From Escherichia coli (GTDB taxonomy: Bacteria > Pseudomonadota > Gammaproteobacteria > Enterobacterales > Enterobacteriaceae), in the NCBI RefSeq assembly GCF_003334355.1, contig NZ_QOWP01000080.1: a stretch of 1,800 bases of DNA; one strand, written 5' to 3'. Below are positions 1-1,800 of the stretch, one piece after another. The notes under the pieces were generated by a model. The model saw nothing but the letters and a program-made list of their open reading frames with translations, ran no database searches and was not told the DNA's origin. How positions within the stretch are numbered: the stretch's first letter is position 1; each line of letters begins with the position of its first letter. The position numbers and the translations under genes were made by a program.

Positions 1-1800
1 GTCAGCCTGCCGTGACGGTCATACCGGTAAAGATAGTGCGCGTCACGGGCGATACGGTTATCCGGCCACATGCTGAGGGTGCTGTCCGGGTGCAGCTCCG
101 GGTCGGGCAGGCGGTTGCCCGCCGGGTCCGTGGCATACGGGATGCGGATATCCAGATTCGCTGCGGTGGTGTGAACGCCGGTCAGCCTGCCGGTGGTGCT
201 GTAGCTGTAACTCCGGGTCTGGCGCGGGCTGCTGATGCGGATGAGTTCGCCGTTGTCGTTCCAGGTGTAATCGCGGTCATACTGCAGGCTGTTCAGGTGC
301 TGACGCTGTAACTGCCCGGCAGGGGTGTAAGCGGTGGTGAGTTCATAACGACCGAAGCTGCGCAGCGTTTCCCGGTGCAGGCGGTCGCGGGTGAAATCCA
401 CCAGCGGTGTGTCGCCGAGCTTCATGCCTGCCAGCCAGCCGCTGCCGTAGGTCAGCCATTCCACGGCGGGCAGGCTGTCCGGTATACAGCGGTTCGCCAG
501 CCCCTGCGCGTTGTACGCATGTCTGGTCTCATGCTGCCAGAGCAGTGCTTCCGTCTCCGGGTGATGCACCGTCTGGCGCTCACCGGTCAGGCGGCCTTTC
601 TCATCATACCTGTAATGCACCGCCACCCGGTGCCCTTCGCTGATATGGCTGATGTCTGTCAGCCAGCCACGTTCGTCATACTGCCACCGCTCTGCGGTTT
701 CACCCTTCACGGTGCGGTGCGTGAGGCGGTCTGCTTCGTCATAGTGCCAGTGGGTGACCAGACCCTCATCCTCGCTGCGGATAAGTTTGCCGGTCAGGTC
801 GTGGTGATAACGCTGTGTGCGGCCGTCAAAGCCGGTTTCCTGTATCAGCCGGTCAAGTACATCGTAACGGAAGGTGGTGTGGCTGCCGTTTTCACTGGTC
901 AGGCGGATGACCCGTCCGGCAGCATCGTATTCCATACTGCGCGTCAGCCCGCCCTGCGTGGTACGGACGGCCTTTCCCCACGCATCGTACTGTGTCCCGT
1001 TTCTGCTGCCGTCCGGGGCAATGACGGCGGTCAGGTCACCGGCGATGTTGTATTCATACCGCGTTTCATGGCCCTGCGTGTCTTTCACGGCAATTAACTG
1101 TCCACGGCTGTCGTATGCGCGGTACTGACTCAGCCCTTCCTCGCGGTGCACCGCCGTCATCTGCCCGAAGCGGTCATGGTCATAACGGGTTACATAACCG
1201 GAACAGTCGGTGAAGCTCAGCAACTGACCGTAACGGCTCCACGTCATGGTTTTCCGGCTGCCGGTGGCATCTTCCGTTGCGCAGGGTAAGTCACTGTGTG
1301 GATTATCATAACGGTAGCGGGTGATATCGCCGTCAGGGGCAGTTTCCTGAATCAGACGGCCCAATTCATCATATTCCCGGCGCAATTCCAGCCCGTCAGG
1401 CCCGGTGGCTGACGTTAACTGGTTGTGGTGGTTATAGTAAAACGCCGATGCCCTGCCATCCGGCGTGGTTATGCGCGTGATGAGGCCCGTCACCACATCC
1501 GGGCTGTATTCTGTTGTCCGGCCTGCGGCATCCGTCTGTGTCCTGAGCCTGCCCACGGCGTCAAACTGACTCTGCGTGACGCTGCCGTCCGCGTGTTCCT
1601 TTTTCACCACCCGCTTCAGCCCGGCTTCGCCCTGCGTGTGCAGCACTTCACGGCGGTCCAGGCTGTCGGTGATGGTGATGTGGTCTTTCTCATACTGATA
1701 CGTGTAGCTTAAGCCTGCCGGGTTAAGCTGTTCTGTCACCCGCCCGTCGCTGTCGTAACGGTAACGGATTTCCGGCCGGCCCGTGTGACGGTGCGCCACC
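1..1800 (-). CDS. Rhs-family YD-repeat core protein (RhsA-D-like polymorphic toxin scaffold), internal fragment, partial at both ends; N-terminus beyond coordinate 1800, C-terminus beyond coordinate 1
   Basis: Seen in sequence: the reverse-complement frame whose first full codon is 1799..1797 (GTG) runs 599 codons to 5..3 with no stop; coordinates 2..1 are the start of the next codon. Translation begins [74 protein letters not shown] and ends [21 protein letters not shown]. It carries many YD-repeat motifs, e.g. [127 protein letters not shown]. Composition is GC-rich (35/60 and 40/60 G+C in two hand-counted lines). Established knowledge: this motif pattern and periodicity define Rhs/YD-repeat shell proteins. 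Paralog and species cannot be assigned without a database search. Confidence 0.92.

Follow-up and report, generated by a model that had tools for sequence, protein, structure and literature searches.

The 1,800-nt stretch of Escherichia coli DNA analysed here (the window) encodes, on its minus strand, core sequence of an E. coli Rhs YD-repeat protein of the RhsB/RhsC type. The minus-strand frame that starts at position 1799 is open throughout the window (599 codons), all other reading frames are closed, and the translated protein consists of successive YD repeats. The host gene is represented as follows:

1–1799, minus strand: internal fragment of an Rhs element core protein gene, 599 codons, recognised by its open reading frame and by its match to positions 356–959 of the profile NF041261.

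Among 5,426 complete E. coli genomes, 3,900 contained matches to the window, at 20,427 places in all. No exact copy was present among these 5,426 genomes; the top matches were 99.1–99.5% identical and were annotated as rhsB, rhsC or 'RHS element core protein'. The best match (99.5%) was the rhsC locus of strain J3 (ybfA-rhs-ybfC, adjoining kdp), in which the rhsC gene has 1,399 codons and the window corresponds to positions 5001–6800 of the extracted locus. The window looks mosaic: the stretch at about 290–420 has the SNPs of rhsB from strain OSUCMP42NDM and not those of J3. One Chi site (GCTGGTGG) is located at 398–405 on the minus, i.e. coding, strand, which is unremarkable, as 22 of 200 shuffles contained at least one.

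Against the NCBIfam profile NF041261 (RHS_core, an equivalog with a curated whole-protein cut-off of 2,000 bits), the window scored 1,223 bits over profile positions 356–959 of 1,261, which is below the cut-off because the window holds a fragment only; the full-length J3 relative reached 2,642 bits over positions 1–1261 and passes. The window protein further contains three stretches of TIGR01643 (YD_repeat, 129 bits, cut-off 15.8). The Rhs-associated core domain TIGR03696 was detected in relatives, outside the window, with 80–82 bits, and PF05593 (RHS_repeat) and PF25023 (TEN_YD-shell) are recorded for the relatives. Identity and profile are shared with the RhsA/RhsB/RhsC/RhsF group of E. coli (NF041261), from which the window differs in nothing essential. 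The C-termini of the relatives part ways after ...DPIGLKGGWN, outside the window, and the small genes downstream of their rhs genes are ybfC, yhhH (Imm-NTF2-2) and dsORF-f3; the arrangement of an Rhs polymorphic toxin, with a core that ends in the PxxxxDPxGL motif, a variable C-terminal toxin tip and a small downstream (immunity) gene, is thus present in the relatives, outside the window. No T6SS genes neighbour rhs at the J3 rhsC, OSUCMP42NDM rhsB and strain 15A rhsF loci examined. The nearest solved structures are the T6SS Rhs cocoons Tse5 (8cp6), RhsA (7q97), Tse15 and Tre23.

At one end of the window lies a short direct repeat, which the original prediction had described as exact over 12 nt and as encoding, in both copies, the GRLT end of a YD repeat (HGRLT and TGRLT):

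1–12, minus strand: repeat copy 1, lying downstream of copy 2 in the gene; GTCAGCCTGCCG on the plus strand, CGGCAGGCTGAC on the coding strand; encodes (H)GRL(T).
181–192, minus strand: repeat copy 2, lying upstream of copy 1 in the gene; identical 12 nt; encodes (T)GRLT.
13–180, minus strand: the 168 nt separating the copies, which together with one copy make up a 180-nt (60-codon) unit.

Both descriptions were confirmed. The plus-strand sequence occurs at 1–12 and 181–192 with 0 mismatches and a start-to-start distance of 180 nt, i.e. 60 codons, and in the coding frame the copies read C-GGC-AGG-CTG-AC, from the third base of the H/T codon through the first two bases of the Thr codon. On the right, identity ends at 12 nt (T at position 13, G at position 193). 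A repeat running past the window edge was considered and rejected, since the base on the left, as read in the J3 relative, is T before copy 1 and G before copy 2, which leaves exactly 12 nt. The window contains no longer exact direct repeat than this pair. Counted by eye and not computed, positions 13–180 appear to hold about three degenerate YD units, the first of which begins GRLTGV. The Arg codon AGG is rare in the window (6 of 64 Arg codons), and is used in 3 of the 5 GRL motifs of the window: those of the two copies (3–11 and 183–191) and one near residue 83 of the window protein. The 12-nt identity is possible because the GRL motifs share this codon choice, which may reflect common descent of the repeat units.

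An exact repeat of at least 12 nt was obtained in 14% of trials when the window was shuffled by mononucleotides. By that measure the repeat goes mildly beyond chance. This is the wrong null for a repeat protein, and a protein-preserving permutation of synonymous codons is to be preferred, which gave an exact direct repeat of at least 12 nt in 61% of trials and an in-frame repeat of that length within 300 nt in 6%. Given the protein, the 12-nt repeat is therefore no more than chance provides. The window has ten exact repeats that reach 10 nt, and nine of them have a spacing divisible by three. This spacing, taken with the codon shuffles, indicates that the short repeats reflect recurring peptide motifs, which supports the earlier suggestion that the protein repeats gave rise to the 12-nt repeat as a by-product. 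Real as it is, the repeat is of a kind expected in a YD-repeat coding sequence.

It had also been predicted that in-frame deletions or duplications of 180 nt could arise through the repeat, and that such length variants should be looked for among rhs homologues across strains. We ran this check on 5,426 complete E. coli genomes with 42-nt junction probes, composed of 15 nt of flank, the 12-mer and 15 nt of flank, to which a wild-type gene matches over at most 27 nt. The wild-type junction was found at 14,127 places in 3,881 genomes and the deletion junction in two of the 5,426 genomes, at two loci, whereas the duplication junction had 0 matches in the same genomes (blastn mode); the prediction thus held, with deletions found and no duplication. 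The two alleles (sequence records CP087578 and CP077477) are:

Deletion allele 1: rhsB of strain OSUCMP42NDM (assembly GCF_020985225.1), between nikR and yhhH, with a 180-nt gap.
Deletion allele 2: rhsF-type gene of O111:H21 strain 15A (assembly GCF_049570225.1), flanked by rpmE and dsORF-f3, with a 180-nt gap.

In the alignment, both alleles show a clean gap of 180 nt (60 residues) with a single CGGCAGGCTGAC left, so that in each the endpoints lie at the direct repeat and one copy is kept, as expected of slipped misalignment. Their open reading frames are intact, without internal stops (1,351 and 1,334 aa), because the spacing is a multiple of three, which says nothing on the function of the shortened protein. 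The deletion product joins YSYSTT to GRLTEK, and the two proteins score 2,483 and 2,471 bits against NF041261, each in two stretches split at the gap and each above the cut-off of 2,000.

The same screen was extended to the whole Rhs core. Deletion and duplication probes were made for every distinct direct-repeat pair (31 in all) with repeats of 10 nt or longer and a separation of no more than 1 kb, and were searched by megablast, with a second megablast screen that left out the commonest junction; the screen needs a near-exact match to three core backgrounds, and all counts are lower bounds. Natural deletion alleles were recovered at at least 10 of the 31 pairs, and duplication junctions of the 31 pairs had 0 matches in complete E. 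coli genomes (megablast). The deletions measure 51, 111, 120, 120, 180, 204, 312, 418, 510 and 558 nt and are spread over the rhsA, rhsB, rhsC and rhsF loci. Besides the 180-nt deletion, the following were found:

951–960 and 1071–1080, minus strand: second microhomology pair, 10-nt GCCCTGCGTG, 120 nt apart, at CDS positions 1758/1878 of the J3 gene; 120-nt deletion.
1071–1081 and 1629–1639: 558-nt deletion, rhsC of strain YZ_2_1.
585–594 and 897–906: 312-nt deletion, IS21-truncated rhs fragment of strain E203449.
Core outside the window: 510-nt deletion, in rhsF of GE3 and also in strain TUM1887.
Core outside the window: 51-nt deletion, rhsF of strain 789.
Core outside the window: 204-nt deletion, rhsB of ATCC 8739 (record CP043852).
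Core outside the window: 120-nt deletion of a second type, rhsC of ZY22049.
Core outside the window: 111-nt deletion, rhsA of CEC13002.
Core outside the window: 418-nt out-of-frame deletion, rhsB of AUSMDU00014361, with a 39-nt exact junction match and a 'frameshifted' annotation.

All of these appear in the alignment as gaps bounded by repeats, except for the 418-nt deletion, which the global alignment did not resolve. The repeats that bound the nine further deletions are only 10–12 nt long, and nine of the ten deletion types occur in one or two genomes only. The remaining type, the in-frame 120-nt (40-aa) deletion at 951–1080, was present in about 82 complete E. coli genomes (93 records less 11), mostly in rhsB, and some genomes carry it in two or three rhs copies; the alleles of strains 63-2 and Z1323CEC0013 are both open (1,371 aa) and differ in their flanking SNPs. 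In all three core backgrounds (3.75-kb core) no in-frame direct repeat with copies up to 1 kb apart exceeds the 12-nt pair in length, and as the longest closely spaced in-frame repeat of the core it can serve as a slippage substrate. It is not special, being one of ten deletion sites in the E. coli Rhs core.

Deletion alleles were found at 10 of the 22 pairs spaced by up to 600 nt and at 0 of the 9 pairs spaced more widely. Pairs with a deletion are closer together than those without (Mann-Whitney p = 0.008; with the threshold chosen post hoc, Fisher p = 0.03), in a comparison that is one of allele counts in genomes and not of rates. By allele counts, deletion frequency falls with repeat distance, and this proximity dependence among repeat pairs is as expected of slippage. 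Selection for in-frame deletions was considered and rejected, as the in-frame share of the deletions (9 of 10) is in line with that of the candidate pairs (24 of 31).

We regard it as unlikely that both 180-nt alleles are sequencing or assembly artefacts and that the repeat never caused a real deletion. Each allele is a singleton, and an exact-protein look-up returned only its own assembly, although this is a weak test that needs an exact match of about 1,300 aa; Rhs cores are multi-copy, near-identical, present at 5–7 places per genome and hard to assemble, and most of the further repeat-bounded deletions are singletons too. A repeat of 12 nt is, however, far below assembler k-mers and read lengths, which makes a collapse implausible, and two unrelated projects, at two loci, yielded junctions that coincide with the repeat to the base. 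The 120-nt sister deletion, in about 82 genomes from many laboratories, moreover demonstrates that repeat-bounded core deletions exist.

A search was made with 1,242 nt around each deletion junction as query. In the deletion allele's own genome, each query was matched in two pieces, at 100% identity and over a span of 1,422 nt, and the full-length paralogues so matched are rhsA in OSUCMP42NDM and rhsC in 15A. Over core columns of about 170–3470 (about 3.3 kb), each deletion allele equals the full-length paralogue of its own genome except for the 180-nt gap, and many core SNPs, to the left and to the right of the junction, distinguish the two alleles from each other. The single mismatch to the deletion probe changes the Thr codon ACA to ACG beside the repeat, and ACG is also found in full-length paralogues. 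Identity with the own-genome paralogue and the SNPs between the alleles make two independent, recent deletions the simplest account, and from their sequences the alleles look like two such events on two different core backgrounds. A single ancestral deletion that gene conversion or horizontal transfer then carried to other loci and strains would explain why both alleles have the same junction, including the adjacent ACG codon; rhs paralogues clearly exchange cores, as their 3.3-kb identity within one genome attests, and the 120-nt deletion reaches three copies per genome. We consider such a spread quite unlikely, because it would require conversion of both flanks up to the gap with the gap itself spared, so as to leave each allele equal to its own full-length paralogue over about 3.3 kb and different from the other allele by many SNPs on either side of the junction, and because the shared ACG variant occurs in full-length paralogues as well.

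Rhs cores at different loci of the same genome are identical over about 3.3 kb (rhsB and rhsA in OSUCMP42NDM, rhsF and rhsC in 15A), and the same loci differ between strains. This identity of paralogues within a genome points to ongoing gene conversion or to homogenisation by short-read polishing.

Taken as sequence evidence, the 12-nt repeat is very probably an incidental microhomology that occasionally causes deletion by slipped misalignment; it is without a function of its own. The Rhs core is a series of degenerate YD repeats with a consensus of roughly GxxxRYxYDxxGRL(I/T), in which two units 60 residues apart happen to share the codons GGC AGG CTG AC- for G-R-L-T. In the proposed mechanism, the resulting 12-nt pair would permit slipped misalignment or template switching, independent of RecA, when the DNA is replicated: the nascent strand would pair with the other copy and 180 nt, one repeat copy included, would be lost. 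The YSYSTT-GRLTEK fusion re-creates a normal-looking YD unit with the frame kept, in a product 60 residues shorter that lacks, as counted by eye, about three degenerate YD units. Repeat-bounded endpoints, the retention of one copy, the lack of reciprocal duplications and the preference for close pairs are hallmarks of slippage, from which we infer that slippage, and not another end-joining route, was the probable molecular path; RecA independence of the 180-nt deletions is likewise presumed. A hairpin joining the repeat copies was considered and rejected: no DNA fold that brings the copies together was found on either strand of 1–192, which folds no better than shuffles (z = 0.21 and −0.78), and with no stable structure only length and proximity mark the 12-nt pair.

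Rhs genes are named for RecA-dependent unequal crossing-over between whole cores, and the two units are paralogous repeat units; both points would favour RecA-dependent unequal homologous recombination between diverged YD units over slippage at 12 nt. Efficient RecA-dependent exchange in E. coli, however, needs roughly 20–30 nt of identity, of which 12 nt falls short. As the likeness between the two units ends at 12 nt and repeats of only 10–12 nt likewise bound the remaining nine deletions, we hold a RecA-dependent origin to be highly improbable. That selection keeps the repeat as a built-in site for changes in Rhs shell size is scarcely credible. In its favour, both copies use the rare AGG codon, the repeat is conserved in thousands of cores and the deletions take out whole repeat units in frame. 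Against it, the protein-preserving null produces such repeats in 61% of trials, only 2 deletion alleles occur in about 14,000, an extreme rarity, the deletions match the candidate pairs in their in-frame share, and conservation of the 12-mer follows from the 95–99% identity of whole cores.

Slipped misalignment at an incidental repeat has precedents. E. coli K-12 is known to delete sequence between short direct repeats independently of RecA (PMC5426353, PMC7145654), and the features of this process are shared here: endpoints at the repeat, one copy kept, deletions without duplications and a preference for close pairs. The evidence there comes from genetic assays, whereas here it consists of natural alleles in genome sequences, with rates, like RecA independence, inferred. 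Bacterial genomes are also known to contain small segments that vary between strains and have short repeats at their ends (PMC2884548), and these share with the Rhs alleles that they are short within-species indels, often bounded by short direct repeats; the Rhs indels differ in that they lie inside a repeat-protein gene, come in multiples of three and remove whole YD units. Within a narrow literature check, the main comparative rhs paper (PMC2935791) makes no mention of intragenic in-frame core deletions, and a full-text search of narrow scope returned nothing specific on length variants of the Rhs core.

The underlying biology is long established, as the E. coli Rhs core is known and short-repeat deletion is a textbook mutation, and the overall significance is little, the gene being well known and the repeat a by-product of its YD repeats. 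What is gained is that predicted length variants were found, in the form of two natural and apparently independent 180-nt deletions, and that ten repeat pairs with the same signature constitute a small natural catalogue of mostly in-frame truncations of the Rhs shell. This catalogue could help to establish how many YD hairpins are dispensable for a cocoon that still encapsulates and delivers its toxin. A further reading may be put forward, which we think very unlikely: YD-repeat coding sequence would provide built-in break points for the in-frame loss of units, and some of the shorter shells would be functional and favoured. One such shortened allele, with the 120-nt deletion at 951–1080, occurs in about 82 genomes and in up to three rhs copies per genome. 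If this reading were true, cocoon size could evolve, and about ten sites, the 180-nt site among them, would be places at which it could change.
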